Virus record (IMG/VR): IMGVR_UViG_2724679206_000002
Coordinates: 8,877-72,876 of that record
Direction: 5' to 3' (one strand)
Length of the DNA stretch: 64,000 nucleotides
DNA from: a virus
Lineage: Duplodnaviria > Caudoviricetes
Every line of letters begins with the position of its first letter. The stretch's first letter is position 1. Positions 20,574 to 49,926 of this stretch are shown piece after piece. Both the position numbers and the translations under genes were made by a program. The notes under the pieces were generated by a model, which saw only the letters and a program-made list of their open reading frames with translations, did not search any database and was not told the origin of the DNA.

Positions 20574-21488
20574 ATGGCTGATACAGCTCGAAAAACCAAG
20601 AAAATCACATACAATTTATTTGAGCGCGGCCGCCAGCATTCAGGTAAAAACCGCGCCAATGTTGATATGAAAGAAATGATCAGTCAGATCAATCATCCTA
20701 AAGTTCAGGAAATGATTAAGTCAGGGACTTTGTACGGCTATAACGGACATGAGATCCGCCGCCGCTACGGCATGTTTCCGCCTGAATCCGTAGTCATTGA
20801 TGGGAAAGTGGTGTACTTAGAAGCTGCATTCAGAACCATTGAATCCTATGCTGATAAAAATGGTGATGTAACCCATGTAGCAGAGTTTCTCGATAATGCA
20901 GCAGGGGAACATGCCCGCAAGCAGTATCTAGCCCGTGTTGGCGGTTTCAGCTCAGCTCAGGATTACCGCCGTTCTGGACTAGGTTTAGTGCCGGTTAATT
21001 TTTATGGATATGACTATGTCACACAGCCAAACTATGTCACTAACGTAGGCGATGGCCAGCTGTTTGATGGACTGGCTGTACCTGAGCAGCAGGAAGGCCT
21101 CATTTCCTGTTTTGACAGTGCGACAGATGTTTCCCTGCTATCGCCTTCAGAAGCGATGATTGCGAATATGCTGGAACAGCAGATTGTACGTGATTTCGAT
21201 AATATTCATGCACAGTTCCAGCTGTATCAGTTTAATGAGCAGGCCTTGGATCAGGTAGATATGCTTGCCGCGCAGCTGGCTAAACGTGAACAGCGAGCAG
21301 TCTTGCAGGCCCAGCGTGAACAGGATTTCTATACGGGCATGGTTGGAGAGATCCGTTCATTTGACTCTGTATGCGATGAAGCTGAGCAATTGCTGAATCA
21401 AAGTGAAATTGCGCGCATGCATATCGATGGAGAAAAGCCGAAGCGCAATGCTGCCAAGAAAGGCACTAAAATCTTTGGGTGGGGTTAA
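20574..21488 (+). CDS. Head-processing (prohead) protease, P1 Pro-like
   Basis: YNLFERGR..SG..R, YGYNGH, VGGFSS, GYDYV.QPNY motifs. Confidence 0.75.
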   Translation: MADTARKTKKITYNLFERGRQHSGKNRANVDMKEMISQINHPKVQEMIKSGTLYGYNGHEIRRRYGMFPPESVVIDGKVVYLEAAFRTIESYADKNGDVTHVAEFLDNAAGEHARKQYLARVGGFSSAQDYRRSGLGLVPVNFYGYDYVTQPNYVTNVGDGQLFDGLAVPEQQEGLISCFDSATDVSLLSPSEAMIANMLEQQIVRDFDNIHAQFQLYQFNEQALDQVDMLAAQLAKREQRAVLQAQREQDFYTGMVGEIRSFDSVCDEAEQLLNQSEIARMHIDGEKPKRNAAKKGTKIFGWG

Positions 21489-22297
21489 TGATGAATATGC
21501 CCAAAGATCCTCAAAAATGCATTCAAGATGCCTGGTATAAAATGCTGGTCGATTTTCGGGCATGGTTCATGCCTGAAACTGTTCAGACGACAGAGTGGAA
21601 AAATCGGAATATCAGCACTGCAATAAAGTCCTGTCCAAGCCGGCTTATGGATGATTCAGAATCGATGCTGGCTGAGTACCGCAAAAGCCAAAATGCTGAT
21701 GTCTCAGGCGGCGCTACGGCGTTTATGCCTATTATGCTGACAGCTACGGCATTGATTGATCAACCGCCCGATGTTAGCCAATTATTGCCGGTACCGTACT
21801 TTGTGCCGGCAGTGATCGACGAAAAGTATGTGAAGATCCGCTTAGTCGCAAAAACAGTACGAGCGCAATTGGCTTTCTATGCAACTAACTCACATGATGC
21901 GCGGTCGGTCTGCGATCAGTTCTGCACATACATGCAGGATGATGTTAAGCGCCGTATAGATGTTCCTTTTGAAATTTCCAGTACACATTCTGAATTCAGC
22001 AGCTTCACAGTTTTAGAAAACCAGTTGTTCCCATCACCGGTTCCCAGTGATGCCATCAACCTGTCTATTTTTACGATCGATGTCCAGCTGATCGGCTATG
22101 TTCCGCAGATTCTGGGACTGGGCGGGCCGAATGATAACAATACGGACAATGGTTATACCCCAGACGGATCTGCAATAGAAAAGCCATTGGACAATTCCGT
22201 AGTGATTCAAGCGGATAAGCTGGCTGAAGACGGGCATGTCCGAATTCATGCTGATAGAGATACGGGCGCCATTACAGAGGAAAACATTCATGAGTGA
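21488..22297 (+). CDS. Putative tail terminator/neck protein (P1 gp24-like)
   Basis: Structural operon position; beta-rich C-terminal half. Confidence 0.45.
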   Translation: MMNMPKDPQKCIQDAWYKMLVDFRAWFMPETVQTTEWKNRNISTAIKSCPSRLMDDSESMLAEYRKSQNADVSGGATAFMPIMLTATALIDQPPDVSQLLPVPYFVPAVIDEKYVKIRLVAKTVRAQLAFYATNSHDARSVCDQFCTYMQDDVKRRIDVPFEISSTHSEFSSFTVLENQLFPSPVPSDAINLSIFTIDVQLIGYVPQILGLGGPNDNNTDNGYTPDGSAIEKPLDNSVVIQADKLAEDGHVRIHADRDTGAITEENIHE

Positions 22298-22799
22298 TAT
22301 GATCCGCATTGACAGCCGCGTGACCGGTTTTTCAGATGATCCTGTACGCTTGATGGCAATGTGCTATCAGGACACAGGCGAAATCCTGCTGCAAAAGACG
22401 GAGATCTACACAACGTTAGCAGTGCCGCCGGATTTACGAAAAAATACGGTGGTTGTAACTGATTCACCCAATTTAATTAAGAATTGGCAGTTGAAATTTG
22501 ACGCGCAGCAGCATCTTGAAGAAGTGATCCGCATTTACCAGGCAAGCTATCGCGGTGGGCTGGTCGAGTTTGAACCGTCAATTGCGCGGTACAATCCGAT
22601 GAACATTCTTCAGGTGCGCAAAATTGATAAGCGGGGCATGCAGCAAGAGTTCGACAGCAGTTCGCTTGATAATGGGCACATTGCAGCGCTGCTGGCAATT
22701 TGGGCAAGCCATAAGATAGCGACAGGGTACGGAGTGATGTCGAATCAAGTGCAGAAAGTGGATGATATCGATCCGACGATGTTGCCGTTTAGTATTTAA
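22290..22799 (+). CDS. Phage morphogenesis protein, unknown function
   Basis: GAGG RBS; overlaps the upstream gene. Confidence 0.6.
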   Translation: MSDMIRIDSRVTGFSDDPVRLMAMCYQDTGEILLQKTEIYTTLAVPPDLRKNTVVVTDSPNLIKNWQLKFDAQQHLEEVIRIYQASYRGGLVEFEPSIARYNPMNILQVRKIDKRGMQQEFDSSSLDNGHIAALLAIWASHKIATGYGVMSNQVQKVDDIDPTMLPFSI

Positions 22800-22837
22800 A
22801 GCACTTAAGTGCTCTGCACATTGCATGGCGCGGCATT

Positions 22838-22878
22838 TTGGAACAGCTGTAAAACATTAAATTTTAAAAACTTAGAAT
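22838..22878 (+). promoter_or_regulatory. Late promoter element 6 (terL)
   Basis: TTGGAAC-N28-TAGAAT. Confidence 0.8.
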
Positions 22879-22907
22879 AAAAATTATAATTCTTCTTCCT
22901 ATTTTCA

Positions 22908-24914
22908 ATGGCACTCCAACCTCTTAAAGAAATCCCTGAATGGTGGGAACTCTGCACCCGCTACCGCTATGACATTTATGCCTTTGCGGTCGAAGCGCTG
23001 GGCATTACACCAACATGGCAGCAGGAACTTTTATTTGAGTCAATTGCCTTTGACGGCAGCCGCACATCTGTAGCATCCGGTCATGGCTGTTTTGGTAAAG
23101 GCACAAAGATCCGCTTAGCAAATGGCAAGTGGAAGCGTGTTGAAAAAATAACAATTAAAGACGCCGTACTGGGAAGTGACGGCATTACACCGAGGGAAGT
23201 GATCAGCACCGTTACAGGCTGGCAGGATCTCTACCGCTTTGAATATGAAAATGGCAAAAGCCATGTCTACAACAAGTCACACATCCTTTGTTTAATTTCA
23301 CTTGAAACCAAAAACGGCTGGAAAGCCGGCGATACCATGGAAGTTTTGGTTTCTAAATGGCTGGAATGGCCTGAGGAAACTAAACGCCAATTTGCTGCCT
23401 ACGAGCTGAAGCATAAGAAATACATCCCAGTACGCATTGAGCGCGCCGTATCACTGGGAGAAGGCGAGTATTTCGGCTTTATGCTGGATGGTGATTCAAC
23501 TTTCCTCACTGCTGACGGCATGGTGCATCACAATACAGGCAAAACCGCTTCGGCAGGGGTCGTTGCACTCTGGCATCTGCTGTTCTTTGATGAATCGATC
23601 ATGATGTTTACTGCCCCGCAAATTGGGCAGCTGAAAAAACAGGTATGGAAAGAAATCAGCATTAACCTGGCGCGGCTTAAAAATGGCCCGCTGGCTTGGC
23701 TGGCTGATTATGTCGGTTTCCAGTCTGAACTGGTTTACATCAAAGGATCAAAAGAAAAGTGGTATGTCTTTGCCAAGACGGCTCCAAAACATCAGCCGAC
23801 TAACCTTGCAGGGAACCATGGCGACAATTACATGGTTTGGGTGGATGAGGCCAGCGGTGTAGCGGATGAAGTTCTGGATGTTGCATTTGGTGCCTTAACG
23901 CACGAAGACAACCGTGCGGTAATGACTTCACAGCCTACCCGTAATGCGGGCATGTTCTATGAAACACATCATACGTTGAGCCACCGCTCTGGCGGTGTGT
24001 GGACTGCGCTTACATTCAACGGTGAAGAATCTCCGCTGGTCAGTAAGCAGTCTTTAGCGGAACAGCGCCAAAAGTACGGCAGCCGTGATGATCCTCAATA
24101 TCAAATTCGTGTTTTAGGTCAATTCCCAGACCGTGCCGATGAATTCCTTATAACCAAGCGCCAAGCAGAAGATATGTACTGCGGCGCTTCAATATTTACT
24201 GAGCACATTTTTGGCTATGTGATCACGGTCGATGTCGGCGGCGGTGTAGGCCGAGACGATTCTGTTATTGCTGTATCTAAAGTTTGGGGTGAAGCGCAAT
24301 GGGGGGATCGGGCGCGGCGGGTTGAAGTGGTTGATATACCGCTTTGCAAGAATAGAGATGATATTACTGAGCTGTTCGCAAAAATTCATGAATGCATTTT
24401 GAAATATCCGAATGCCACGCTGGTTGTCGATGACAATGGCGCCGGCAAGGGCTTAGGCCAGCTGCTGAAGAAAAACGGCATCTGGTATATGCCTGTGCAT
24501 TGGGGCGGCGCATGCTTCAATAATGACAACCGCAAAGAGTATGTGAATAAACGCGCTTTGGCCTATGTGGGTCTTTACCGGGCGGTAGAGCAGGGCCGGT
24601 TTAAAATTAAAACCATTAAGTTCAAAATTAAGGTACAGGCTCAGATTATTAAGATCCCTTATACATTCGATGAGCACAGTCGCTATAAGATTTTCAGTAA
24701 GGATGAAATGAAACGCATGGGGATTAAATCCCCCGATTTAGGTGATGTTTTCGCCTTCTTATTTTTGGAAAATGTGTTCTATACCGAAGCGTATGAAAAT
24801 GTTGCTGTCTTGGATGAAAGTCCAGAGGCGCAGGAGCAGGCAGCAAGAAAATCACGTTTCAGTCAGCTGAAAGAAGCCGCGGAAAAAGAATTTGGAAAAG
24901 ATGGGAATAAGTAA
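22908..24914 (+). CDS. terL: Terminase large subunit (P1 PacB-like), intein-containing
   Basis: Walker A SGHG/TGKT split by an intein, Walker B VWVDEASG, nuclease ITVDVGGG...SPDLGD. Confidence 0.93.
   Translation: MALQPLKEIPEWWELCTRYRYDIYAFAVEALGITPTWQQELLFESIAFDGSRTSVASGHGCFGKGTKIRLANGKWKRVEKITIKDAVLGSDGITPREVISTVTGWQDLYRFEYENGKSHVYNKSHILCLISLETKNGWKAGDTMEVLVSKWLEWPEETKRQFAAYELKHKKYIPVRIERAVSLGEGEYFGFMLDGDSTFLTADGMVHHNTGKTASAGVVALWHLLFFDESIMMFTAPQIGQLKKQVWKEISINLARLKNGPLAWLADYVGFQSELVYIKGSKEKWYVFAKTAPKHQPTNLAGNHGDNYMVWVDEASGVADEVLDVAFGALTHEDNRAVMTSQPTRNAGMFYETHHTLSHRSGGVWTALTFNGEESPLVSKQSLAEQRQKYGSRDDPQYQIRVLGQFPDRADEFLITKRQAEDMYCGASIFTEHIFGYVITVDVGGGVGRDDSVIAVSKVWGEAQWGDRARRVEVVDIPLCKNRDDITELFAKIHECILKYPNATLVVDDNGAGKGLGQLLKKNGIWYMPVHWGGACFNNDNRKEYVNKRALAYVGLYRAVEQGRFKIKTIKFKIKVQAQIIKIPYTFDEHSRYKIFSKDEMKRMGIKSPDLGDVFAFLFLENVFYTEAYENVAVLDESPEAQEQAARKSRFSQLKEAAEKEFGKDGNK
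23088..23534 (+). mobile_element. Mini-intein (149 aa) in the TerL P-loop
   Basis: Starts CFGKGTKIRLANG, ends YFGF.LDG...VHHN, +1 residue Thr; too short to hold a homing endonuclease. Confidence 0.9.
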
Positions 24915-24926
24915 AAGCCCCGCTAT

Positions 24927-25001: not shown

Positions 25002-25781
25002 ATGAAACAGGTATTTAAGACTGTAAACCTGCTGGCGGCAGGTGTCCAATTGCTCGGAGATTTAAAAGGGCCACTCCTGAATTTTAAGAATAATGTGCGC
25101 CGTAATAGAAATGACCCCAGCCCTAAATATAAGCAGCTATTTACACCTGAAATGATTAATAAAGCCTACTTAAACCCAGCGCTGCAGCTGAAAAATTTCG
25201 GACATTTCATTATTGTGAATGCACGATATACAGCAGTTGCTGCGGTGCAAGGCAATACGTCTAAAACACGAAAGACGGTAGTTTTAGAGTTTAAAGAAAA
25301 TAGGGCTATGAGTATTGACGATATTCTACAGCTTTTATCCACATACCCTGCAGCAACACTCAGTGTTAATGATAATGGTGAGGGTAAATTCCTAGGCCAG
25401 TTATTAAAGAAAAACGGCATTTGGTATATGCCAGTGCACTGGGGTGGAAACTGCTTTAGTAATGACAATCGTAAAGAGTATGTCAATAAGCGTGCACAGT
25501 CTTATGCCTGCTTATCTTACGCAGTCAATACGTATAGCTTTAAAATTTGCCAGCCGCACAATAACGAAAAAGTATTGAAAGAACTCAAAAGCATTCGTTA
25601 CAGCTTTGATGAGCGTTCACGCTTTAGAATCATGCCAGTATCTGAGATGCGTGAGATCGGGCTTGATGTTCCAGATATTGCAGATTTATTTGCCCAGATT
25701 TTTTTAGAAGGTACCGCGTATTCATTGGAACTAAACAGTCCTGACTTATCCACGCCAGCTAACAATACCCAAAGTGATTAA
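25002..25781 (+). CDS. Stand-alone paralogue of the TerL C-terminal nuclease domain
   Basis: LGQLLKKNGIWYMPVHWGGxCFxNDNRKEYVNKRA shared with TerL; YSFDERSR and PDIADLFA parallel YTFDEHSR and PDLGDVFA. Confidence 0.85.
   Translation: MKQVFKTVNLLAAGVQLLGDLKGPLLNFKNNVRRNRNDPSPKYKQLFTPEMINKAYLNPALQLKNFGHFIIVNARYTAVAAVQGNTSKTRKTVVLEFKENRAMSIDDILQLLSTYPAATLSVNDNGEGKFLGQLLKKNGIWYMPVHWGGNCFSNDNRKEYVNKRAQSYACLSYAVNTYSFKICQPHNNEKVLKELKSIRYSFDERSRFRIMPVSEMREIGLDVPDIADLFAQIFLEGTAYSLELNSPDLSTPANNTQSD
25725..25766 (+). promoter_or_regulatory. Late promoter element 8 (tail fibre)
   Basis: TTGGAAC-N29-AACAAT, then hairpin ACCCAA/TTGGGT. Confidence 0.75.
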
Positions 25782-30385: not shown

Positions 30386-32149
30386 ATGTCTCTATCTGAT
30401 TTAATGCAGCAGCAATTCAAAGCGCAAATGCTTGCAACACAGCAATGCCAGAACTATTTCTATAAAGACGGTGAAGAAACTGGCTTTGACAGCGCTATGG
30501 GTATGCCGGAAATTCGCCCACAGGCGCTGAATGAATTACTTGATATTATGGGCTTTGACAGCGCTTCTGATGTCGATGAAGCGATTAAGACAGGGATCAG
30601 CCAGTATCAATATTGCCACGGCGGCGAATTGCCTCACCCATCCATCATTGCAACGGCATTAAGCAACGGTGTCGCCATTGCTAAAAAAGTTTGCAGCTAC
30701 AGTGATCAAGCGACTCAAGGCTATGCAGATTTAGAAAAAGGCTTTGATGACATCAGCAATACCCATCAAGAATCAGTCAGTATCGTGCCAGCACTGTCAG
30801 TGACCACAATTGCAACAACGATTGCGTATGCCTCTCCAATTGTGGCTTATATTCCAAACAGCAACGGTTCAAATGAAGTACCGATTGTTGCTGCGCGTTT
30901 TGTCACTGACCGCACATTTGGCGCCATGGAAAAAAATGATTATCTCGATGGTGTACAGGCGGCAAAGCCATATGCTGAAGGGCGCTTCCGTTTTGCGCTC
31001 AGCAATGGCGGGGCTGGCGCCGTATATACAGTAGTCGCACACACGCATTATGCGGACTATGCCGCTAAAACACCGGATATCAATGCGCCACTGCTGCCAT
31101 TTATCAGCGGTAATGTTTCTATTCGTATTGCGGGCAAAGAAGTTGCGCACACCCGCAGCCGCAGCAAATCTAAACTTGCAGGCTCTATTTCTGCGATTGC
31201 TGAAAAAAATGCAAATATTGGCGGCGAAGTATACTCAGTGACTTCCAGCAATATTAATTTGGATACCAGTTCGATTTCAGTCACCTTGGATAAAGAGCTT
31301 CCTGACGGCATCAAGCTGGAAGTGTGTTTAATTGCTGATTTTGAAGCACGTGATGCTGCCAATAAATTCAAAATGGAACCGGTTGGCGTCAGCATGGAGC
31401 CTGAATACGAAACATTGGTCAGCGCGCCGATCATGACGCAAATCCGGGCATCGAAACTGCTGGTCAATCAGATATCAAGCGAACTGAAAGTCGGTTTTGT
31501 AGGAACTGCATTAGGACTGATGCAAGGTAAAATCTATCTTGAGCAGACGATCCGGCTGTTGGGTGAAGGTAAAGACCGTGCTTTATACAATGGCCGAGAG
31601 TTTACCTTTGATGCTTCCCGCGGTGTAACGGGCAATTTAGCTGCGGCATATAACACTTCTGGCGATTTGTTCGGCGAATTCATGAAGTATCTTGAAGCGG
31701 CGAAGTTAGGGATTGTTCAGGATTCTGGCGGCGCTACAGTCGGTTTTGATTTGTATGTCGGCGATACGGCTAAAATTTTCTTTGCACAGCTGTCATCAGA
31801 CAAAATGCCAGTGAAAACAGGTGCTACTGCCGGCCATGGTCAAATTGTACGGATTGGTACATTGGCTGACGGCACTAATGTTTATCACGTGCCAAGCTCT
31901 GCCGCTGTGCTGAATGAAGCAGGCCAAGCTTTTGAAATGCTGCTGATTGGCCGAGGTAATGAACCAGTACGCAATCCATTTATCGGCTTTACGGAAATGC
32001 CGCTGACAGTGAGTGAAGCGACTCCAGATCCGCGTGAACAGCTGATTGCCTTAATTGGATCACAGGCTGCAGAACTTAACCCGCTGGACCGCTATGCTGA
32101 TCAGTTTGCATTGATCAACGCGATCAACATGCCAAAACTCAAAAACTAA
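30386..32149 (+). CDS. Major capsid protein (P1 gp23-like)
   Basis: 587 aa, own promoter and terminator, N-terminal propeptide with FDS motifs, synteny capsid-sheath-gp21. Confidence 0.7.
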   Translation: MSLSDLMQQQFKAQMLATQQCQNYFYKDGEETGFDSAMGMPEIRPQALNELLDIMGFDSASDVDEAIKTGISQYQYCHGGELPHPSIIATALSNGVAIAKKVCSYSDQATQGYADLEKGFDDISNTHQESVSIVPALSVTTIATTIAYASPIVAYIPNSNGSNEVPIVAARFVTDRTFGAMEKNDYLDGVQAAKPYAEGRFRFALSNGGAGAVYTVVAHTHYADYAAKTPDINAPLLPFISGNVSIRIAGKEVAHTRSRSKSKLAGSISAIAEKNANIGGEVYSVTSSNINLDTSSISVTLDKELPDGIKLEVCLIADFEARDAANKFKMEPVGVSMEPEYETLVSAPIMTQIRASKLLVNQISSELKVGFVGTALGLMQGKIYLEQTIRLLGEGKDRALYNGREFTFDASRGVTGNLAAAYNTSGDLFGEFMKYLEAAKLGIVQDSGGATVGFDLYVGDTAKIFFAQLSSDKMPVKTGATAGHGQIVRIGTLADGTNVYHVPSSAAVLNEAGQAFEMLLIGRGNEPVRNPFIGFTEMPLTVSEATPDPREQLIALIGSQAAELNPLDRYADQFALINAINMPKLKN

Positions 32150-35289: not shown

Positions 35290-36066
35290 ATGTTTGGTTC
35301 AAAAAACCCTTTAAATGCAAAAACTCAGAATTTACTTCTGCGAGAATTTGATTCAGCTGCTGCGGAAATTAAAACTTCTGTTTCAGCATTAACCAGTTCA
35401 ATTCGTGAAGAACTTTCATTTATTGAGCACGTCCGTGAACAAGCTTTAAACATTGTTGCGGAGCTTGCAGATGCAGTGACTGAAGGAACGCTTGAAGAAG
35501 GTGAGCTGCCATCGGACCGATTGGACTTTTTGATTTTGGAGGTGATCGACGGCGCTGATGATGATGAAAATACATTAGAAAATGCTGTATTAGAATCAAT
35601 TGCAGATGCATTGGCCACATTTGGGGTTGATGATTCTATTATTGAAGAAATGATGGGTGAAAATGTCGAAGCGGCCGATGCTGCGATTGAGGCGGCGGCA
35701 AGCACTGTAATTGCCAATATGCCAGACGATGGTGATCCGCTGGATGATTTGGTGCGTGAATTCATCTATGGCGAGCCAGATGAAATGGAAAGCGGCTTTG
35801 ATGCTGCAACTGGGAAAAAACTGTCCCGCGGAAAAATGACCACAAAATCTTTCAACGGCAAGAAAATCCGTTATAAAGCTATTGCTGCAATTCGCAAGGG
35901 GGTAAAGACAGTTGTTAATAAACGCTTACCAGGGCAAAAAGTTCGCTTATCCAGCGACCAAAAAGCGGGTTTGAAAAAAGCGCGCTTAAAATCGACTTCT
36001 GCAAACTCGATCCGTAAGCGCATGAAGTCGTTGCTTAAAGGTAAAAAACTTGGATTGTATAAATAA
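35290..36066 (+). CDS. P1 gp21-like protein (acidic body, very basic C-terminus)
   Basis: D/E-rich up to aa 170, then K/R-rich tail (VNKRLP...QKAGLKKAR.K...R.KS); follows the sheath gene. Confidence 0.65.
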   Translation: MFGSKNPLNAKTQNLLLREFDSAAAEIKTSVSALTSSIREELSFIEHVREQALNIVAELADAVTEGTLEEGELPSDRLDFLILEVIDGADDDENTLENAVLESIADALATFGVDDSIIEEMMGENVEAADAAIEAAASTVIANMPDDGDPLDDLVREFIYGEPDEMESGFDAATGKKLSRGKMTTKSFNGKKIRYKAIAAIRKGVKTVVNKRLPGQKVRLSSDQKAGLKKARLKSTSANSIRKRMKSLLKGKKLGLYK

Positions 36067-41703: not shown

Positions 41704-42261
41704 ATGAATACTACAAAGATATTAGGTGAAGCGGTTGGCATTCAGCGTCAGGACATCGTGGACCAGACAGAAGAGCAGCTGGCAGACAGTCTAAATGGCG
41801 CTGCAATTTTAGGCCGTTTCAAACGTGGCCGCTTAGATAAACCCATTACGATTCATCAAGGTAATATCCGCGGGCAATTGGGCTATGAACCAAATAACCC
41901 GGACTATATCGCTGTGCAGGATTGTCTGGACGCAGGCGTGCCTAACGTGCAAGTTTTACGTATTTCAGGGGGCGCATTGATTTGCCAAAAGCTTGTTAAT
42001 GTTGATAATTATCGTCAATTTATTGTTAGGCCTGATCTTACTGACGCGGGCCAGCAAGAGATAGATAAGGTACTTGATGCACTAATTGAATCCGGTAGGT
42101 ACACAATCAATGAGCATCCATATCAATTGAAGAACACCTATTATGTACGGACGGATGAATATATTGATATATCTATCAGCCGTTCTGAATCAATAGGCGA
42201 ATTTAACGAAGTTGAATTTTGTGCATCCGTGCCTTTCATTTTTGAAGCATGGTACACCTAA
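41704..42261 (+). CDS. Second sheath N-terminal-domain (PmgG-like) protein with a short unrelated C-terminus
   Basis: First 88 aa nearly identical to the 40192 protein, then unrelated. Confidence 0.75.
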   Translation: MNTTKILGEAVGIQRQDIVDQTEEQLADSLNGAAILGRFKRGRLDKPITIHQGNIRGQLGYEPNNPDYIAVQDCLDAGVPNVQVLRISGGALICQKLVNVDNYRQFIVRPDLTDAGQQEIDKVLDALIESGRYTINEHPYQLKNTYYVRTDEYIDISISRSESIGEFNEVEFCASVPFIFEAWYT

Positions 42262-42779
42262 TGCTGATCGGGTTTAAGCGAGCCAAAATTCTAAGCTACA
42301 GCGCAAAGAACAGAACTGCCAAAATTCATATTCACGGTATGACTGATGGGGCCAGCGAAGGTTTAACGGCCACTTTTGCTTATCCGGTCGGGGACAGTGA
42401 TAAGGATACTGAACGGGAAATTCTAACGGGAGAAGACGTTTATGTATTCTTTGAAAATGGTGAGGAATCTAGGCCTGTTATTGCGTTTTTCAGCAGCCAT
42501 GGTGAAGAGCCCGTTGTTGATATACGCCGTATCCGGCAAGAGAACATTGAATTGCTGGCTAAAAGCCAAGTGTATATAGAAGCGCCAGAAGTCCGCATTA
42601 AAGCAAAACTGATCTTGGAAGGTGATTTTGAGCACCAAGGAAATCAAAAAACAGAAGGCATGATCACGGCCACAGTCGATGTTGTTGCTGCAAATGTATC
42701 CGTTAAATCTCATCCTCATAGCAATGTCCGTGCAGGAACAGACGATAGTGGGCCTCCTAAACCAGCTGGAACTGCCTAA
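42261..42779 (+). CDS. Baseplate spike (gp5/gpV-like)
   Basis: OB-fold N-terminus (VYVFFENG...PV), beta-helix, HPHS metal-binding tip. Confidence 0.8.
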   Translation: MLIGFKRAKILSYSAKNRTAKIHIHGMTDGASEGLTATFAYPVGDSDKDTEREILTGEDVYVFFENGEESRPVIAFFSSHGEEPVVDIRRIRQENIELLAKSQVYIEAPEVRIKAKLILEGDFEHQGNQKTEGMITATVDVVAANVSVKSHPHSNVRAGTDDSGPPKPAGTA

Positions 42780-42836: not shown

Positions 42837-44372
42837 ATGGCTGCTTCAGACATCCTTTCGTTATTGCTTGGTCCTAGCGCCAATAGTGTTCCTCTGCAGC
42901 TGGCGAATGACAATCAGGAAACTATGGTGCAAATGTTTGACTCATTTGCACCATTTTCGCTTGGTACAAATTCAACTGTAGAAAACCGTAAGCGAACCCG
43001 CAAAGAAATATATACAAAATGGGAGCAGATGCTCCGTTTCGCGCCTGTTGCAGAGGGAATTGGCATTCATGTCACTGCAGCTTTAGGCGGTGATACCCAT
43101 AATGGTCAGCAAATTTTTATAACACCGGCTGAGCGCTTGCGGGGTGAAACCGGTGCTGCTGCTAAAGAGCAGCTGGAACGGTTGCAAAAGCGTATCAAGC
43201 CCATGGAAACCTTGATTAATAAATACATCACTAAGATTTGCTCTGACGGCATTTCATTTGGCGATGCTTATGCACGGATCTATGGGAAGAAAAGTAAAGG
43301 CGTTACAGATATGCTCTGTAATGAGTTCACTCATCCGCCCTTATTGCAGTCCTTTGAGCAAGGCAGCAAAACCGTCGCTTTTTTTGCCTTAAATCCAAAA
43401 AACTGGGTCAAAACCATTACTAAAATGAGTTCTACACAAATGGTCCGGCTAAAGATGCCCCGTATTGTGAATGTGCCTCAATTTGATTTAGTTGAAACTG
43501 GGTTGATCGTACAGATGCTCGAAAGAGATGAACCCGATGAATTACCGATCCTGCCTGCTATGGTTGGCGGTTCATTCCTGTTTGCAATTGAGAAAGCATA
43601 TGATGACGTCATGCTGTCTTTAACAACAATGAATAGCCAGCAGGTTGCAGATGCAGTCAACCAGATGTTTTTATCCCTTAATATGGCAGGCATGCCAGAA
43701 GCGCAGCGCGAAGCATACAAGCGCGGTTTAGAAGGTATGCTGCAAGATCATGAGAAATTCGTAAAAAATGCGATGTCTGGTGGAGAAGGTATTTGGAATA
43801 CCAAATATCATGTATTGCCGACCTGGGACGAAAAACAGATCTTAAACCCAGTCGGTGACATTAAAGGCCAGCGCAATTCACCGATTAATATTGAAACATT
43901 CATGATCAATGTACGCCTGCTGATGGGCGGCTTTGGACTTGATCCATCGATGGTTGGTTGGGCGGATATGCTGGCGGGCGGTTTAGGAGATGGAGCCGCG
44001 ACATTAACATATTCCAGCCAGGTGATGCGGCGCTCTATGTGGATTCGGCAGTCAGCAACACAATTCGTGAATGACATTATGCATCTTGATTGGGGCTATG
44101 CATACAATGAACAGTTTGATCAGCTGGATTTCCCATGGCAGGTTGAATTCTCAAGTAGCCAATCTGCTGCCGTGACTGAAGAAAATACAAATAAGCAAAC
44201 GCAAATGAATACTTCACTGCTGAAGATTCAAGTCATTAACTCATTGAAAGAATCCAATCTCAGTGAAGAGACCATGCAGTACATATTAGAAAAAGATGCT
44301 GGCTTCAATTATGACGATGCCAATCGTGTGGCTAAAGATATTGCAGCTTCAAGACAAAATGAATCGGAGTAG
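42837..44372 (+). CDS. Portal protein (P1 Prt-like)
   Basis: FGDAYARIY, GGSFL, G.DPSMVGWADMLAGGLGDG motifs; 511 aa. Confidence 0.75.
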   Translation: MAASDILSLLLGPSANSVPLQLANDNQETMVQMFDSFAPFSLGTNSTVENRKRTRKEIYTKWEQMLRFAPVAEGIGIHVTAALGGDTHNGQQIFITPAERLRGETGAAAKEQLERLQKRIKPMETLINKYITKICSDGISFGDAYARIYGKKSKGVTDMLCNEFTHPPLLQSFEQGSKTVAFFALNPKNWVKTITKMSSTQMVRLKMPRIVNVPQFDLVETGLIVQMLERDEPDELPILPAMVGGSFLFAIEKAYDDVMLSLTTMNSQQVADAVNQMFLSLNMAGMPEAQREAYKRGLEGMLQDHEKFVKNAMSGGEGIWNTKYHVLPTWDEKQILNPVGDIKGQRNSPINIETFMINVRLLMGGFGLDPSMVGWADMLAGGLGDGAATLTYSSQVMRRSMWIRQSATQFVNDIMHLDWGYAYNEQFDQLDFPWQVEFSSSQSAAVTEENTNKQTQMNTSLLKIQVINSLKESNLSEETMQYILEKDAGFNYDDANRVAKDIAASRQNESE

Positions 44373-44375
44373 GCA

Positions 44376-45011
44376 ATGAGTATTTATGATGGGGGAACTT
44401 TGCCGCCGATTAGTGTAGAAGCAGCCTCTAATGCCTTACAAGGCATGTGGTCTGGCATGCCGATCAGTAAGGCAAAGGCTATTTATGACGGGATCTATAA
44501 ATTAGGAACAATCTCAAACATTCATTTTGGGGTAGAGCTTAAGCCCTTTGATCCAAACAGTGCGATTGCACAACAGGATATTCCCATTTTTGATGAACAG
44601 GTGCGGCTGCCTTGGTTATGCCAGAGTATCGATTTGTCAGTGCTGGATGCGCAGACAGACAGCGCGCAGGTGGGGGCTTTTCAGCTGAATTTTTTAACGG
44701 GCAACAATTCAGGTGAAATTTCAATTCCATTTATTGAGACAAAAAATGCTGACATTTTAAATAGTGCAGGCTTTATCAAAGATATTATGTTTCCAGATGG
44801 GGCGGCTGGCGGTACTCAGGCACTGCCGATCGATTATCTGATGAAAATGACCATTTATATTTACGATAGGCACAGTTATTCAACACGGGTTTTTGAAGTT
44901 CAGCACATGGTCGCGCTGCAGACTGGCAGCATTCCGCTGGATGCTTCTAACCGTGGCGGGGTGGGTATAGTGACGCTGAATTTTATTAAGATGTTTCCCA
45001 TGTTGAAGTGA
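44376..45011 (+). CDS. Tail tube-fold protein (tube or tube initiator)
   Basis: LCQSIDL...VG.F..N..TG..SGEISI.FIET pattern. Confidence 0.55.
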   Translation: MSIYDGGTLPPISVEAASNALQGMWSGMPISKAKAIYDGIYKLGTISNIHFGVELKPFDPNSAIAQQDIPIFDEQVRLPWLCQSIDLSVLDAQTDSAQVGAFQLNFLTGNNSGEISIPFIETKNADILNSAGFIKDIMFPDGAAGGTQALPIDYLMKMTIYIYDRHSYSTRVFEVQHMVALQTGSIPLDASNRGGVGIVTLNFIKMFPMLK

Positions 45012-45086: not shown

Positions 45087-46703
45087 ATGCGTAATATTGA
45101 TATTTTCAAACAGCACTGGGCGCCGCATCAGTCCCGCATCGTTGCCGGCTTTGACTCAGCTGTAAACAGCGGAACATGCTTAATTGGCGTTATTCAAGGC
45201 AAGTATCGGACGCTGAATGCGATTGTGACTGAGACTGCGACAGAAGATGATCAGTGGCGTATCGTGAATTTGAAGGGCCATAAAGATAGTATTCCAGCTT
45301 TTGATTCAATTGCCGTATTGGGCGCCGTAGACGATACGCAGGCTTCGGCACTTGCAGGACTGCAGTTCGGCCGCATGTTTGATTCTGCCGTAGACTCAGT
45401 AATTGAAACCAATCCGCAGGGGCTGATGCGCCATTTGGCGGCGCCGTATTACCACAAAACCCCAAATATCATCCCGGAATGGCAGCTGGCCCAGCTTCAG
45501 GATGTCACATGCGCCACTGTGCCCGGCTGGGACGGAATCAGTCTGACGTCCCATGACGGACAGACCGCCAATTTAATGCTGGATCTGCAGCGGCATGATG
45601 ACCATGGCGGTCTGCTGCAGGAATTTGACGGACTGGCGCCGCTGCTTGAGTCTATCGGCGCTGTGTATGCGGACTTTGATTCAATCATTGTTGAATATCA
45701 GTATTTGGAAAAGCTGATGGCCATGCTTCACAAAGTGATGCAAAGCACTTCAAAAGGTGGGGTAAAAATTCTGAATGTTGAACAAAGTGAAAAGCCGTTT
45801 AAGCATAAAAAAGTATTGAATATTGCTGTTACTTATAATTTTGAAGATGGTCAAAGCATTACAATCCTGTTTCATCATCCAGACCGTGAAGCTAAAAAAA
45901 TTACGCCGCAGGATATGCTGATTTCATGGAAGATCCTCATGAATAGCCGTGATATTACAGGCGCTATTCAGCCGAATCAGGGTGAAGGAATTGAGATGCC
46001 GGTACTGGCAGGCCGGATCATGAAACTGGTCAATCAGAACAGCGCCCGCTTTAAGCGCACTCAGGCTAAAAAGGCAGAAAATGTTCAGGCCTTAGCCGAT
46101 GCAGAACAACGTTTGTTTGATAAACAGGGGATAAAAGCTGCGCTTGAGGCCGAAATTCAGGGTTTGCTGAATCAGCTGGATCAACAACAGGCACAGCAAT
46201 TAGCCCAACAAACATCACAAAATGAGGATATTCCTGCTGAACCTGCTAAGGCATATCCGCCAATAGAAGATTTAGGCGACGGTTATTACCAGGCATTTAA
46301 AAATGATAAGAAAGTAGATTCTTGGACGGCACATTTGAATACAAACGGTAAATGGGAAGTATCAGCAAACAACGCTCAAACACGTGCATGGAACCGTGGA
46401 TTTGGAGCGCCACGATTCTTTAATACTATTGATGAGATGATTGCAAAGTATCCTGCATTTGGTGAACTGGCAGAGTTGTTGGAGACATCGAATGCATCCA
46501 GCGGCAACAAAGGTGATTCTGATGATGCTGATTATTTGAATCAAGTCATTAAGGGTGAAGTGGATTTTTCGAAGTCAAATGAAGTTGAAACGAAGCTTGA
46601 AGACATTGGCAGCCGGCTTACTGCAGAAATTAATGACTTATTTGAGCAGGCCGTTACTTCCTATTCAGTTTATCAAGTCGGCCAAGCCTCACAAATTCAT
46701 TGA
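45087..46703 (+). CDS. darA: DarA-like defence-against-restriction head protein
   Basis: FEDGQSITILFHHPD...WK..MN.RDIT...NSARF (DarA_N); DADYL..VI.GEVD...LFEQAV.SYS (DarA_C). Confidence 0.8.
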   Translation: MRNIDIFKQHWAPHQSRIVAGFDSAVNSGTCLIGVIQGKYRTLNAIVTETATEDDQWRIVNLKGHKDSIPAFDSIAVLGAVDDTQASALAGLQFGRMFDSAVDSVIETNPQGLMRHLAAPYYHKTPNIIPEWQLAQLQDVTCATVPGWDGISLTSHDGQTANLMLDLQRHDDHGGLLQEFDGLAPLLESIGAVYADFDSIIVEYQYLEKLMAMLHKVMQSTSKGGVKILNVEQSEKPFKHKKVLNIAVTYNFEDGQSITILFHHPDREAKKITPQDMLISWKILMNSRDITGAIQPNQGEGIEMPVLAGRIMKLVNQNSARFKRTQAKKAENVQALADAEQRLFDKQGIKAALEAEIQGLLNQLDQQQAQQLAQQTSQNEDIPAEPAKAYPPIEDLGDGYYQAFKNDKKVDSWTAHLNTNGKWEVSANNAQTRAWNRGFGAPRFFNTIDEMIAKYPAFGELAELLETSNASSGNKGDSDDADYLNQVIKGEVDFSKSNEVETKLEDIGSRLTAEINDLFEQAVTSYSVYQVGQASQIH

Positions 46704-46718
46704 TAGGAAATTTATGTA

Positions 46719-47033
46719 ATGAATGCATTAGAAAGATTGAAACTCACCAAAGAGCTGCGTCAGCTGGTAGATACAATTCCTGATATGAAGGGCATGGATA
46801 AGTTGCAAAGTACAAAACGTTTGCGCGAATTGATTGAGATTTTAGGCGGTCAGGCAACGTCTGAAGTAAATAAACTGTATCAGTCAATTATTGATGGAAG
46901 AGAGGAAGCATCAGTTGAATTGCTGCTGCAGGTACGTGCAGAGGCAGAAAAAAACCTGCAAGATCCTTTGCTGATTGACGCTGTAAATGTATTGATTGCG
47001 CAAATCAATGAATTGGCTGGAACAGCTGAATAA
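46719..47033 (+). CDS. DdrA-like small helical protein
   Basis: Lies between darA and ddrB; MNALERLKL..EL helical hairpin. Confidence 0.5.
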   Translation: MNALERLKLTKELRQLVDTIPDMKGMDKLQSTKRLRELIEILGGQATSEVNKLYQSIIDGREEASVELLLQVRAEAEKNLQDPLLIDAVNVLIAQINELAGTAE

Positions 47034-47058
47034 TCCGGCCTCATGCATCTTTCAAAAT
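47017..47058 (+). promoter_or_regulatory. Late promoter element 16 (ddrB)
   Basis: CTGGAAC-N29-CAAAAT, hairpin AAAATAGTCCT/AGGGCTATTTT. Confidence 0.85.
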
Positions 47059-47091
47059 AGTCCTTAACAGGGCTATTTTTTTGAGTACGTA

Positions 47092-49926
47092 ATGAGTGAT
47101 TTTGCAAAAATTGACAACATTCAGGATGAATCTGAAGTTTTAACAACAATCGATAAATTAATCTCAAAAGTTGAGAATAATGAGATTGTTGAATGGGACA
47201 GTGAGCAGGCAGAAAAACTGTACCGCGAATATCTGGCAAATCTTGATAAGTATGATGGCAAGTCTATTGCTGCATCAAAGGCCTATTTTAATGATCACCT
47301 AAATGGCAAGCTGGTGCACACCAAAATTGGTTTAGTCCGTATTAATTCAAAATCAAGAGGTAAGGTTCATGACCGGATGCGGGATGTTAAATATTTGGCT
47401 ATCCCATATATTCCTGAAGTTTTAATGACGGGTGAAATTAGTGATTTAGTGCCATTAAATAAAGACCGTACTGATAGCGTAGAAGGGTATTATATTTTTG
47501 AAAAGTCAAAGCAGCTGAATGACTTCACGCTAAATATAACTTTGAAAGTGGCATTAGATTCTGAAGGGCATTTATTATATTACTTAGGCGCATCAAAAGA
47601 AAAAAGCCAACTTACACCTATCTCACAGGTCGTTAACCCCATAGGCTTGGAAGCTGGCTTTGACTCTATTGAATCACGGTATGAAGACGAAATCAATATT
47701 GATGTACAAGTTTTAGACAAAGATGGCAATGTGCTATCTCAAGCGGACGCCTTGAAAGCATTATTAAAAAAATACGGTATTAATAATATTGTAAAAGGCC
47801 GCAACAATAAGGTTAAGACAGCCAAAGGAACACAGGTTTCAACCGTATTTGCATTACTTGAGACTAAAGACGTCATCGCTTCGCATACAGCCGCCGGCGC
47901 TGAAAATACTGAATACCCTCAGGAACTGCAGCCGCGTGACCGCAGCCGCGAATCCTCACAGGCTTGGGTTCAAAAAACGTCAAATGGATTAGATACTGAA
48001 AGTCTTGGGCGATCTGGCCGAGCCGATACTGGCGCCCCAATTGTAGGGGATGATTTGGTCGTTGAATCGGGCAATGGCCGCACCATGGCTATTAAGCTGG
48101 CTTATGAACGCGGGCAGGCTGAAGAATACCGGCAATGGCTGATTGAAGAAGCCGAATATTTTGGATTTTCATCAGATCAGGTTGAGAATTTTACTGCTCC
48201 TATTTTGGTACGCATTCGCACTTCAGTTGTGGACCGAGTTCAGTTCACGATAGAGGCCAATCAGGACGATAAGCTGTCATTCAGCGCCACTGAGCGCGCG
48301 AAATCAGATGCCAAGCGGCTGGACGAAAACCTGCTGGCCTTATTTACTCCAGGCGATGACGGCGACCTGCTGACGGCCGGCAATCAGAAGTTCATTCATG
48401 GCTTCCTGAAATCCATAGGCGATACGGAAGCGGCTCAGTACATCACCACCGAAGGCAAGCCGACTCAGGCGCTTGTTGCCCGGATCAAGGCTGCTATTTT
48501 CAGTAAAGCCTATAACGATGACCGGTTGCTGGAAATGATGGCTGATCAAACAAAACCAGATCTACAGAATATGTTGAATGCCTTAGGCGCCGCAGCGCCC
48601 AAGTTTATAGAGGCGCAAGCGGTAAGCCGTGGTGATATTCAGGATGTATCCAGCTCAATTGTAGATGGGATCGAGCAGGCGCTGGACAAGCGCGTTACCA
48701 ATGCCATTATTGATGCTGCCAATACTATCGTTGCTGCAAAGCGGAATGACCAAGACATTGCAGAGTTTGTTCAGCAGCAGGGCTTATTTGGTGACTTGGG
48801 GGAGGGTGTGCCAGAGCTGGCAGTATTCCTGTCAAAGAACAGCCGCAGCGCCAAAAAGATGAGCATGCTGTTTAAGGCAATGGCGGAATTTGCGGAAAAG
48901 CAGGCAATTGATCAGCTGAATATGGGGCTGTTTGGAGAGCCGGAACCAGTCAGCATTAAAGACGCGATCAGCTATGCCGCAGCAGTCATCAATGATAATT
49001 ACGGGGACAATGCGACTATCAGCATGTTTGACTCAGCGAATGAGGAATTCACGCTGTTTGATCAGCATGCCCATCAGGCAGCAACTTCTCCCTACAGCCG
49101 CGCCACGCTGCCGGAACAGGCGAACTTGATTGCCGGCAAGTACCTTAAAGGCGCCGTAAAGATTGGTGAGCTGAATATCGCAATTAAAAATCCGGCAGAC
49201 TCCGTCCGCGCTGGCACAGATCCCAGCGGAAAAAAATGGGAAGTCAAAATGCAGCATCACTATGGCTACATTGAAAATACAACGGGCGCGGATGGCGATG
49301 AAATCGATGTGTTTGTTAAAAACCACTTGGATTCAGTACCGGAGCAAGCCTATATCATCCGGCAGCTGAATGCCGCCGGCGCCTTTGATGAGCATAAAAT
49401 CATTATCGGCGCTGAATCTGAGAATGAGGCTAAACAGATCTATCATTCAAATTTTGAACCGGGCTGGCAAGGCTTCGGGAGCATTCAGCGGATTGCAATG
49501 GCTGATCTGCCGCAGAAGCTTCAGCACACCTGGTCTGAGTTTGATTCATGGGCAGCAGACGGCAGCTATGAGCATATTCCATTAAAGCAAATTGTCACAG
49601 ACAAGGCGCTTAAAGTGGACGAAAGCAAAATCAACAAAGAAGATCCGGTGCTGGTGATTGAAAAAGGGCATAAGTATTATCTTGTTGTCGGGCTGGAGCG
49701 GCTAAAGCTGGCCGCCCAGCGACATGAAAGCCTGGTACCGGCGATCATTTTTGATGACAGGGATGTGAAGAGCAAAATCATTCAGAATGCCTTGAGAAAG
49801 GCCGGCAGCACAGTGGATACGGTTGCCCTTGCAGCCTTGATTGTTGATGAGATGGAGAAAATTTTAATTTCCAGTTTTGATTCGGCAGCCAATTCATTGT
49901 TTGAAATCCTTTACCAGTCCAGCTGA
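47092..49926 (+). CDS. ddrB: DdrB-like polyvalent protein (LPD3/BECR-like + ddrB-ParB + inorganic pyrophosphatase-like + ParB-like)
   Basis: LQPRDRSR...GAPIVG...VESGNGR (ddrB-ParB); NP..S.R.G...W...M..HYGYI..T.GADGD.IDVF...FDEHK (InPase). Confidence 0.8.
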   Translation: MSDFAKIDNIQDESEVLTTIDKLISKVENNEIVEWDSEQAEKLYREYLANLDKYDGKSIAASKAYFNDHLNGKLVHTKIGLVRINSKSRGKVHDRMRDVKYLAIPYIPEVLMTGEISDLVPLNKDRTDSVEGYYIFEKSKQLNDFTLNITLKVALDSEGHLLYYLGASKEKSQLTPISQVVNPIGLEAGFDSIESRYEDEINIDVQVLDKDGNVLSQADALKALLKKYGINNIVKGRNNKVKTAKGTQVSTVFALLETKDVIASHTAAGAENTEYPQELQPRDRSRESSQAWVQKTSNGLDTESLGRSGRADTGAPIVGDDLVVESGNGRTMAIKLAYERGQAEEYRQWLIEEAEYFGFSSDQVENFTAPILVRIRTSVVDRVQFTIEANQDDKLSFSATERAKSDAKRLDENLLALFTPGDDGDLLTAGNQKFIHGFLKSIGDTEAAQYITTEGKPTQALVARIKAAIFSKAYNDDRLLEMMADQTKPDLQNMLNALGAAAPKFIEAQAVSRGDIQDVSSSIVDGIEQALDKRVTNAIIDAANTIVAAKRNDQDIAEFVQQQGLFGDLGEGVPELAVFLSKNSRSAKKMSMLFKAMAEFAEKQAIDQLNMGLFGEPEPVSIKDAISYAAAVINDNYGDNATISMFDSANEEFTLFDQHAHQAATSPYSRATLPEQANLIAGKYLKGAVKIGELNIAIKNPADSVRAGTDPSGKKWEVKMQHHYGYIENTTGADGDEIDVFVKNHLDSVPEQAYIIRQLNAAGAFDEHKIIIGAESENEAKQIYHSNFEPGWQGFGSIQRIAMADLPQKLQHTWSEFDSWAADGSYEHIPLKQIVTDKALKVDESKINKEDPVLVIEKGHKYYLVVGLERLKLAAQRHESLVPAIIFDDRDVKSKIIQNALRKAGSTVDTVALAALIVDEMEKILISSFDSAANSLFEILYQSS

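Follow-up and report, generated by a model that had tools for sequence, protein, structure and literature searches.

Phe-Asp-Ser motifs in the head proteins of a P1-like Acinetobacter phage: a probable cleavage code of the prohead protease

Background

Motif-directed maturation of the phage head is textbook knowledge for T4 and well documented for the phiKZ-like phages, and the cut is always made after Glu. The T4 protease is gp21, a member of MEROPS family S77. Here we investigate a tripeptide, F-D-S, that recurs in the head proteins encoded by a 64,000 nt stretch of the IMG/VR virus record IMGVR_UViG_2724679206_000002 (Duplodnaviria, Caudoviricetes; positions 8,877-72,876 of the record). This whole stretch is referred to as the window, and all coordinates given are window positions. 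A sequence-only reading of the window had proposed that F-D-S is the site of an Asp-specific prohead protease.

The described proteases recognize short motifs. T4 gp21 cuts at (L/I)-x-Glu↓, the arrow marking the cut, and phiKZ gp175 and SPN3US gp245 (S80) cut at (S/A/G)-x-Glu↓, with Ser preferred at P1' in SPN3US (PMC10052503, PMC5694885). The phiKZ and SPN3US proteases also cleave their own C-termini at the same motif, and the catalytic triad of T4 gp21 is His-Ser-Asp (PMC5694885).

In phage P1, the mature capsid protein gp23 starts with SVAAEM by Edman degradation, which places the cut at E120↓S121, and has a mass of 49.3 kDa (Gonzales et al. 2022, PMC9024508). Residues 1-69 of the P1 internal protein DarA are unseen by cryo-EM and ~9 kDa is removed (PMC12810830). 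P1 DdrB reportedly undergoes processing before or during packaging to a 76-kDa form, a step that Iyer et al. (2017, PMC5512222) assign to a metallopeptidase domain within DdrB itself. The gp23 site is the only one mapped in the P1 family, and no published consensus was found for it; our literature search, which had subscription journals outside its coverage, returned neither an Asp-specific prohead protease nor a consensus for the P1 protease, Pro.

Between ~8 kb and 53 kb, the window encodes the virion proteins of a P1-like myovirus, one of the Acinetobacter type. Among cultured phages, Acinetobacter phage vB_AbaM_ABMM1 (hereafter ABMM1) is closest, with a capsid identity of 62.1%. Beyond ABMM1, the sole other phage record found by tblastn with the capsid was Xanthomonas phage Rb1 (24.7% identity). 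Conservation was assessed in two IMG/VR scans, of 80 loci around the capsid gene and 80 around the portal gene, mostly 61-64% identical; the counts are of distinct sequences only, with 27-39 close relatives for the protease, the gp21-like protein and the capsid. A scan for the DarA locus by that single protein found only 3 loci and was dropped in favor of the alignment from the portal scan.

Results and discussion

F-D-S is concentrated in the head proteins

All of the F-D-x positions listed in the sequence-only reading are present, and their nucleotide coordinates were checked (Table 1). The eight head-module proteins (3,457 aa) contain 14 copies of FDS against 0.61 expected and 16 of FD[SA] against 1.47; neither count was reached in 3,000 within-protein shuffles. 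In the other 51 open reading frames (ORFs; 14,222 aa) the corresponding figures are 1 against 2.18 and 5 against 4.80. The difference in FDS between head proteins and other ORFs has a Fisher odds ratio of 58 (p 1.4e-9), and the enrichment that had been claimed for the head proteins is thus borne out. No tripeptide is more over-represented in the head set than FDS (Poisson 5e-15); GFD and DSA come next, and therefore the extended motif is G-F-D-S-A. Ser follows FD in 14 of 29 cases in the head proteins and in 1 of 34 elsewhere. With the gp21-like protein taken out of the set, 13 copies remain in 3,199 aa. The Glu-type pattern [LFM]E[SA] is without enrichment in the window.

The enrichment recurs in ABMM1. 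Its seven head orthologues (3,009 aa) contain 8 FDS against 0.54 expected, a number that none of 1,000 shuffles reached, while the other 55 ORFs (18,387 aa) contain 5 against 2.9. For [FY]D[SA], the ABMM1 head orthologues have 15 copies against 2.25 expected and the other 55 ORFs are not enriched.

The sites lie in propeptides, at the edges of Pfam domains and in low-confidence linkers of AlphaFold models. The claim that they would be found in propeptides and at domain junctions holds for the capsid propeptide, the start of DarA_N, the end of InPase and the DdrB linkers. In relatives of 50-90% identity the motif changes little or not at all. Amid variable neighboring positions, the F-D-S/D core is fully or almost fully conserved at protease 180 and 263, capsid 34 and 120, gp21-like 20 and 170 and residue 139 of the protein encoded at 22236-22799.

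The last of these is the only FDS outside the head set, which agrees with the near-absence that had been reported. It is the EFDS of a protein encoded directly upstream of the large terminase gene, in which QQEFDSSSL is invariant in 22 of 22 relatives. The protein could be the small terminase subunit or an unrecognized head protein.

These observations, together with those below, suggest that F-D-S is probably a prohead-protease cleavage code, cut after Asp at the listed sites. The motif itself is a real feature and most likely the cleavage code of the protease.

The capsid and the measured P1 site

The capsid protein of the window belongs to phrog_1014, which also takes P1 gp23 (1.6e-252) and the Rb1 capsid (1.2e-129), all three from about profile position 3-10 to the end. 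We aligned the capsid using L-INS-i. From 70 homologues of 30-93% identity, the 69 of at least 550 aa were combined with the window, Rb1 and P1 sequences (72 in total), and the capsid of phage D6 was added later (73). In the 73-capsid alignment, P1 AMLE↓S, D6 AMFE↓S, Rb1 AMD↓S and window GFD↓D share one column. This column holds Asp in 70 sequences, Glu in two (P1 and D6) and Thr in one; at P2 the 72 sequences have Phe (62), Tyr (5), Leu (3) or Met (1). A three-sequence alignment also set the P1 site on window GFD↓D. The P1 sequence there is KAMLE↓SVAAEM, at the cut measured by Edman degradation. A cut after D121 would leave a mature window capsid (122-587) of 466 aa and 49.6 kDa.

The protease has a T4 gp21-like fold

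The candidate protease consists of a catalytic domain (~1-157) and a tail that carries motifs of its own. P1 Pro matches the same family, phrog_4727, at E 4e-24, and the two proteins align by BLASTP at E 4e-20 with 34% identity over 149 aa. Identification by sequence through Pfam or the PDB gave nothing. No Pfam family was matched at E <= 0.01, the curated model of the gp21 family, Peptidase_S77, included, and a profile search of the PDB returned no significant chain (best E 0.83). The gp21 likeness was identified by fold search alone. The AlphaFold (AF2) model has a mean predicted local distance difference test score (pLDDT) of 70, with values up to 92 in the catalytic domain, and Foldseek matched it to T4 gp21 (5jbl) at E 2.5e-4 with probability 1.00. 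On structure comparison, model residues 1-152 align with 5jbl_B at Z 10.7 and a root-mean-square deviation of 3.3 A over 130 residues. The next-best matches are herpesvirus proteases at Z ~5 (best 5.3). On this model, the protease fold is of the T4 gp21/herpesvirus-protease (assemblin) type.

Judged by conservation, H59, S126 and D147 are candidates for the catalytic triad. Arg62, three residues past His59, is likewise invariant, being kept in P1 Pro and in all 178 of the non-P1 members.

Family-wide counts were made on the P1 Pro family (phrog_4727, phrog_1801 and phrog_30560), for which a profile search gave 340 cluster representatives at E <= 0.001. The best 150 of the 340 were examined, and tail counts are from the 138 of these with at least 250 aa. 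The tail of the window protease has four hydrophobic-Asp and no hydrophobic-Glu motifs. A disordered linker (152-177, pLDDT <50) separates the catalytic domain from the predicted first self-cleavage site at FDS 180, the aligned column of which is Asp in 115 of 138 representatives. Here window CFDSATDVSLL aligns with P1 Pro MFESADSKSLL, in both proteins the first motif past the catalytic domain, and the site is placed like MLE↓S in the D6 protease. FDS 263 lies between helices 191-253 and 263-284 of the model, with a dip in pLDDT at 255-258.

Asp and Glu codes in the P1 Pro family

Is the use of Asp peculiar to the window? The 138 tails contain 515 hydrophobic-Asp-[SAG] and 78 hydrophobic-Glu-[SAG] motifs at about equal abundance of the two residues (1,632 D and 1,506 E). 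Asp dominates in 128 representatives and Glu in three, with seven tied. The catalytic cores have 110 hydrophobic-Asp and 46 hydrophobic-Glu motifs. The P1 Pro tail has none of the former and five of the latter (its motifs are MLES, MFES, LLES and LFES). The D6 protease, 43% identical to P1 Pro, has five copies of (M/L/A)(L/M)ES, and the JK004 protease has six hydrophobic-Glu motifs; hydrophobic-Asp-[SAG] is absent from both tails. In Rb1, which belongs to a separate lineage, hydrophobic-Asp-Ser is found at four places in the protease tail and at three in the capsid propeptide.

In P1 itself, [FLM][FLM]E[SA] occurs seven times in nine head proteins against 1.47 expected (3 of 2,000 shuffles reach seven) and once in 30 other proteins, a strict Glu pattern that was chosen post hoc; its Asp counterpart shows no enrichment in the P1 head proteins. 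The sequence-only reading had given MLE(S/A) for P1 head proteins. This agrees with MLE↓S at the Edman site of gp23, with the four motifs of P1 Pro and with LLE↓A in DarA.

The dichotomy between Asp and Glu lineages is real by these counts. The sequence-only reading had also proposed a regulon-wide switch from Glu to Asp. The dichotomy on which that proposal was based stands; the proposed direction is not shown, with 128 of the 138 representatives Asp-dominant. Among the best 150 of 340 representatives, Asp is the common form and Glu is confined to the enterobacterial P1/JK004/D6 group. The change may therefore run towards Glu. It may be that the whole P1 Pro family (at least 340 clusters) normally uses hydrophobic-Asp↓Ser/Ala, that the enterobacterial P1/JK004/D6 branch recoded the enzyme and all of its sites to Glu in concert, and that the Asp code bounds cargo cassettes that the prohead protease dices. 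We put this larger scheme forward tentatively and doubt it slightly more than we believe it.

DarA-like and DdrB-like cargo

The genes with DarA_N and DdrB-ParB (PF18763, E 1.4e-33) domains lie directly downstream of the portal gene. The leader of the DarA-like protein carries five F-D-x motifs conserved in all 43 distinct homologues, and one Glu-type motif, LLE↓S at 188-190. P1 DarA has LLE↓A at 66-69, which fits the limit seen by cryo-EM.

The DarA-like gene is apparently split. The 538-aa ORF matches residues 6-417 of ABMM1 DarA (650 aa), and a 104-aa ORF at 46719-47033 matches residues 595-645. Because of that match, the short ORF is to be read as the C-terminal piece of DarA and not as a DdrA homologue. 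BLASTP of the ORFs in the Hdf and DdrA positions (44376-45011 and 46719-47033) against P1 Hdf and DdrA gave no significant match (E 0.2 or worse).

In the DdrB-like protein, no peptidase domain was found with Pfam. Segments of pLDDT <50 make up 174 of the 944 residues of its AlphaFold model and contain three of the four FDS sites; the fourth borders such a segment. BLASTP aligns it with P1 DdrB over 236-650 (E 2e-92), and the alignment stops exactly at window MFDSAN over P1 LFESVS; the modules differ beyond this point. At this 646 site, 33 of 37 homologues read QMYDSL and 3 read SMFDSA. Past LPD3, GFDSI recurs in DdrB-like relatives that are built differently. The motif [FY]D[SADG] is found 7-11 residues past the end of InPase in 80 of the 80 distinct modules followed by at least 12 aa, and is kept even where InPase is the first module. 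Eight other InPase modules end there without the motif, and the InPase fold therefore does not need it. At the 929 position, both other relatives that reach so far read GLFELE. Across 120 DdrB-like homologues that differ in architecture, 338 copies of [FY]D[SA] were counted, with ~100 expected.

In the polyvalent relatives P0234, P0302, P0305 and P0288, extra modules are flanked by two copies of the motif (SMFDSA 675 and SMFDSI 883 in P0234). This suggests that modules are cassettes carrying their own cut sites. With no peptidase domain in the DdrB-like protein and the head-protease motif at its module joints, the simpler view is that the prohead protease would cut it in trans.

The gp21-like protein and the portal

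The gp21-like protein, so called for its likeness to gp21 of P1, has a 21-residue leader, an acidic middle (22-171, isoelectric point (pI) 4.1) and a very basic C-terminal part (172-258, 87 residues, pI 12.0). Its two motifs stand at the ends of the leader and of the acidic part. In P1 gp21 (gene 21, L004:1593-2408, minus strand), LME↓S stands at 28-31 and ELE↓A near the equivalent of the 170 site. The P1 protein is absent from the P1 virion proteome table, and a protein atlas look-up of the gp21-like protein gave only unnamed clusters and a legacy 'tail tube' label. That the gp21-like protein is a head protein is suggested by the motif. Instead of a tail component, it may be a substrate inside the head, scaffold-like or DNA-binding.

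Weighing the cleavage code against other explanations

Not all of the evidence is favorable, and several of the observations in this section count against cleavage after Asp by the window protease, at particular sites or in general. The set of eight head proteins was picked in the sequence-only reading with the motif already known. The motif also travels with the ends of modules, SEFDSW following InPase in 41 of 80, so that part of the count is shared descent. F-D-S could then be no more than a recurrent feature of the structure or of linkers, or a side effect of module shuffling, without proteolytic role, and its enrichment could be the product of a post hoc choice of proteins. We regard this as highly improbable. 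The carriers (capsid, protease, DarA, DdrB-like and gp21-like) are mutually unrelated and have in common only a core of 3-5 residues, FDS is the top tripeptide at a count that no shuffle reaches, and no structural explanation accounts for the way in which the lineages differ in concert between Asp and Glu at aligned sites.

In the capsid, the correspondence of window FD↓D with the P1 site depends on the alignment chosen. The window and P1 capsids gave no BLASTP alignment, and hhalign of the two starts only at 154/157. A six-sequence MAFFT alignment put P1 MLE↓S on window HQE↓S (128-130), eight residues downstream, in a column where Glu is conserved (63 of 72). This placement was set aside for the FD↓D placement of the 72- and 73-sequence alignments. 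Might F-D-S instead serve for docking or capsid targeting, with the shell interior, the protease or a scaffold as its binding partner and with cleavage, if any, elsewhere, for example at HQE↓S? That small alignment would favor such a role, and several copies (DarA 22, gp21-like 20, capsid 34) sit in N-terminal leaders, the place of the T4 and P1 DarB targeting signals (PMC9024508). We nevertheless hold a docking role to be quite unlikely. In the richer alignments, the P1 site known from Edman degradation falls in the FD↓D column. The HQE column has a polar P2 and a variable P1' (Ser 40, Gln 14, Ala 11), and Rb1 reads HHD↓Q. C-terminal and inter-module copies (DdrB 817 and 929, protease 180 and 263) make poor sense as targeting signals, and multiple propeptide sites with C-terminal self-cleavage are the known pattern of gp21-type proteases.

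Two further capsid motifs are unhelpful to a cleavage code. Site 57 is not conserved, Phe being kept in 8 of 38 close relatives; in ABMM1, an IFDS precedes this position by three residues. The invariant TFDAS at 408 includes an FDA, and TFD is also present in P1. Because FDA 408 lies within the folded capsid body, it cannot be a maturation site.

Glu also occurs at some of the sites. The portal FDS, which had been listed in the sequence-only reading, is not conserved, with LYE[T/S] in place of [FY]D[SA] in 17 of 21 distinct portals. Capsid column 57 has Asp in 37 and Glu in 17 of 72, and the window DarA has its one LLE↓S. Moreover, no residue of the catalytic domain was found to track the Asp or Glu code. 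F125W, F146V, F105I, N40E and others were considered as specificity determinants and rejected, as the W125 and V146 of P1 Pro are also found in the Asp-type member P0107, which has four hydrophobic-Asp sites. Arg62, a candidate partner of the acidic side chain, is invariant in Asp- and Glu-type members alike. All of this would suit a protease that cuts after any acidic residue with a bulky hydrophobic P2, the Asp bias being a habit of the substrate lineage with the enzyme unchanged. We consider such a protease unlikely. It fails to explain the 515 to 78 ratio in tails with equal D and E content, the absence of hydrophobic-Asp from the P1, D6 and JK004 tails, and the split of 70 to two at the capsid maturation column. 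The LYE[T/S] and IEY variants also have a poor P1' (Thr, Tyr) and may be lost sites.

The remaining points concern single proteins and the literature. The gp21 site pairs were dropped as column-level evidence since they align in MAFFT and are offset or not reproduced in BLASTP, and P1 gp21 has the legacy annotation 'baseplate or tail tube'. The gp21-like protein had been listed among the head proteins; it does carry the motif, but this annotation speaks for another place in the virion. In P1 DdrB, a cut at LFE↓S would yield a 47.9-kDa fragment and not the reported 76 kDa. For P1 DdrB (L001, 24542-27529, minus strand) we also observed that a cut at DIE↓A (707-709) would leave a 77.2-kDa N-terminal fragment, which is close to 76 kDa. 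The paper on ABMM1 and its supplement gave neither band sizes nor peptide maps.

The comparison with P1 that had been suggested is therefore favorable in part. The 73-capsid alignment, DdrB MFDS over LFES and protease CFDS over MFES agree with a shared set of sites; the pairwise capsid comparisons and the gp21 pairs do not. Likewise, the core of the Asp-specific prohead-protease proposal held in the computational tests, and its polarity, its portal site and the head status of the gp21-like protein call for correction.

We infer a cut after Asp, by the window protease and at all of the listed sites, from the enrichment, the conservation, the linker positions, the fold and the column correspondence with P1 and D6. 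The protease would recognize x-(Phe/Tyr)-Asp followed by Ser, Ala or Asp. In the prohead, the capsid propeptide would be removed piecewise, with cuts at 35, 58 and finally 121, and the protease would trim its own C-terminal tail at 181 and 264. The DarA leader (~198 residues) would be removed in several pieces, the DdrB-like cargo cut at its module joints (191, 647, 818 and 930), and the gp21-like protein cut at 21 and 171.

Table 1. Location of the proteins and motif sites discussed (window positions)
Feature	Position	Strand	Observations
Prohead protease, P1 Pro homologue, 304 aa	20574..21488	+	phrog_4727 E 3.6e-130; start in ORF list TTG 20499, numbering from ATG 20574
His59, candidate catalytic His (GH motif)	20748..20750	+	178/178 non-P1 members and P1 Pro
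Ser126, candidate catalytic Ser (GGFS)	20949..20951	+	178/178 non-P1 members and P1 Pro
Asp147, candidate third triad member	21012..21014	+	176/178 non-P1 members and P1 Pro
Protease FDG 164-166, weaker variant in disordered linker	21063..21071	+	F 27, D 27, G 23/D 4 of 27 relatives
Protease FDS 180-182, predicted first self-cleavage site, just past linker	21111..21119	+	F 27, D 27, S 26 of 27 distinct relatives
Protease FDS 263-265, predicted second self-cleavage site	21360..21368	+	F, D, S in 27/27 distinct relatives
22236-22799 protein, directly upstream of large terminase	22236..22799	+	phrog_4179, function unassigned
FDS 139-141 (EFDS) of 22236-22799 protein	22650..22658	+	sole FDS outside head set; 22/22 distinct relatives
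Major capsid protein, 587 aa, P1 gp23 homologue, propeptide ~121 aa	30386..32149	+	phrog_1014 E 2.3e-163
Capsid FDS 34-36, propeptide	30485..30493	+	P2 F 66/Y 5, P1 D 72, P1' S 70 (72-capsid alignment)
Capsid FDS 57-59, propeptide, variable site	30554..30562	+	F in 8/38 close relatives; column D 37/E 17 of 72
Capsid FDD 120-122, predicted maturation cut after D121	30743..30751	+	F, D, D in 39/39
gp21-like protein, 258 aa	35290..36066	+	phrog_1053, common with P1 gp21; BLASTP E 3e-12
gp21-like FDS 20-22	35347..35355	+	38/38 distinct relatives
gp21-like FDA 170-172, acidic/basic junction	35797..35805	+	F 38, D 38, S 35/A 3 of 38
Portal protein	42837..44372	+	phrog_1497 E 1.3e-179; BLASTP to P1 Prt E 4e-34
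Portal FDS 34-36, doubtful site	42936..42944	+	[FY]D[SA] 4/21, LYE[T/S] 17/21 distinct portals
DarA-like internal head protein, 538 aa, leader ~198 aa	45087..46703	+	DarA_N (PF18788) 196-319, E 6e-27; phrog_8883
DarA FDS 22-24	45150..45158	+	FDS in 43/43 distinct homologues
DarA FDS 72-74	45300..45308	+	[FY]DS 43/43
DarA FDS 98-100	45378..45386	+	FD[AS] 43/43
DarA FDG 180-182	45624..45632	+	FDG 43/43
DarA FDS 197-199, at DarA_N start, predicted final cut	45675..45683	+	[FY]DS 43/43; predicted product 38.1 kDa
DdrB-like polyvalent cargo, 944 aa	47092..49926	+	LPD3 62-163, DdrB-ParB 245-376, InPase 679-810 (Pfam)
DdrB FDS 190-192, between LPD3 and ParB	47659..47667	+	inside pLDDT <50 segment 167-200
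DdrB FDS 646-648, between ParB region and InPase	49027..49035	+	inside pLDDT <50 segment 638-652
DdrB FDS 817-819, seven residues past InPase	49540..49548	+	borders pLDDT <50 segment 821-825
DdrB FDS 929-931, 14 residues from C-terminus	49876..49884	+	inside pLDDT <50 segment 924-944

Other features of the virion module

By PHROG and Pfam matches, the order of the module is baseplate, protease candidate, large terminase with a Hint insert, tail fiber, capsid (phrog_1014), sheath, gp21-like, tail tube, portal, DarA-like, DdrB-like, PmgG and endolysin. The large terminase (22908-24914) has a Hom_end-associated Hint segment at residues 61-130 (PF05203, E 7e-13), which suggests an intein or intein remnant. 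The next ORF after the terminase, 25002-25781, has no PHROG match.

Between the gp21-like and tail tube genes, and on the opposite strand, is an MCRA-family gene (36203-37822, minus strand; PF06100, E 7e-192). Members of this family are oleate hydratases, and the gene is probably a moron within the structural module. At this spot, antirepressor and toxin-antitoxin genes are found in ABMM1 instead. Among the three ORFs at 40177-41430, 41704-42261 and 42249-42779, two adjacent ones have a common N-terminal stretch of 90-140 residues (phrog_5283/14345), and the third matches ABMM1 gp22 (3,451 aa) over residues 3-150 only. The giant ABMM1 tail protein seems to have been replaced or broken up in the window.

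Implications

For P1, the results offer a testable rule, hydrophobic-hydrophobic-Glu↓Ser/Ala, which fits both gp23 and the cryo-EM limit of DarA. A second, Asp-based rule would apply to the much larger remainder of the family, to which the cultured ABMM1 and widespread Acinetobacter prophages belong. Fragment sizes and mature N-termini can be predicted from the analysis for the protease, the capsid, DarA and the polyvalent cargo, and the head protease is suggested to release the cargo modules. The matched natural pair of Asp-type and Glu-type enzymes would allow the study of a protease and all of its sites changing specificity together. A site with its leader might also help to pack foreign proteins into such capsids; T4 and the P1 DarB leader have already been used in this way.

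If a family-wide Asp code was indeed recoded to Glu, a protease and the entire set of its substrates would have co-evolved in nature. Cassettes such as LPD3, ParB, InPase, ART and MuF-C would be diced into separate effectors before injection by the prohead protease and not by a built-in peptidase, and any F-D-S-flanked domain would become a packaged and released payload.

Comparison with known systems

The window resembles P1 in having a homologous protease, capsid, portal, DarA and DdrB, with both proteases in phrog_4727. The two also have a propeptide of ~120 residues, sites with a bulky hydrophobic P2, an acidic P1 and a small P1', and a shell protein of ~49.5 kDa. They differ in the code, which in P1, JK004 and D6 reads (M/L)(L/F/M)-Glu↓Ser/Ala and in the window clade x-Phe/Tyr-Asp↓Ser/Ala/Asp. 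They also differ in gene order: the window protease gene is 21 kb from the portal gene, whereas the P1 protease and portal genes overlap.

T4 gp21 and the phiKZ and SPN3US proteases cut the capsid, internal proteins and their own C-terminal tails at a motif, with several sites in a long propeptide, as is predicted for the window protease, and T4 gp21 has its fold in common with the window protease (Z 10.7). In T4 gp21, phiKZ gp175 and SPN3US gp245 the cut follows Glu and the informative residue is P3, whereas the motif pattern of the window points to Asp with an informative hydrophobic P2.

The described polyvalent proteins have LPD3, DdrB-ParB and InPase modules in variable order, as does the cargo here, and their processing has been attributed to built-in zincin-like peptidase domains (PMC5512222). 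The DdrB-like protein of the window is without a peptidase domain, and its joints carry the head-protease motif. Particular to this case are the tie of the motif to a site mapped by experiment in a homologous protein and the clean division of sister lineages between Asp and Glu.

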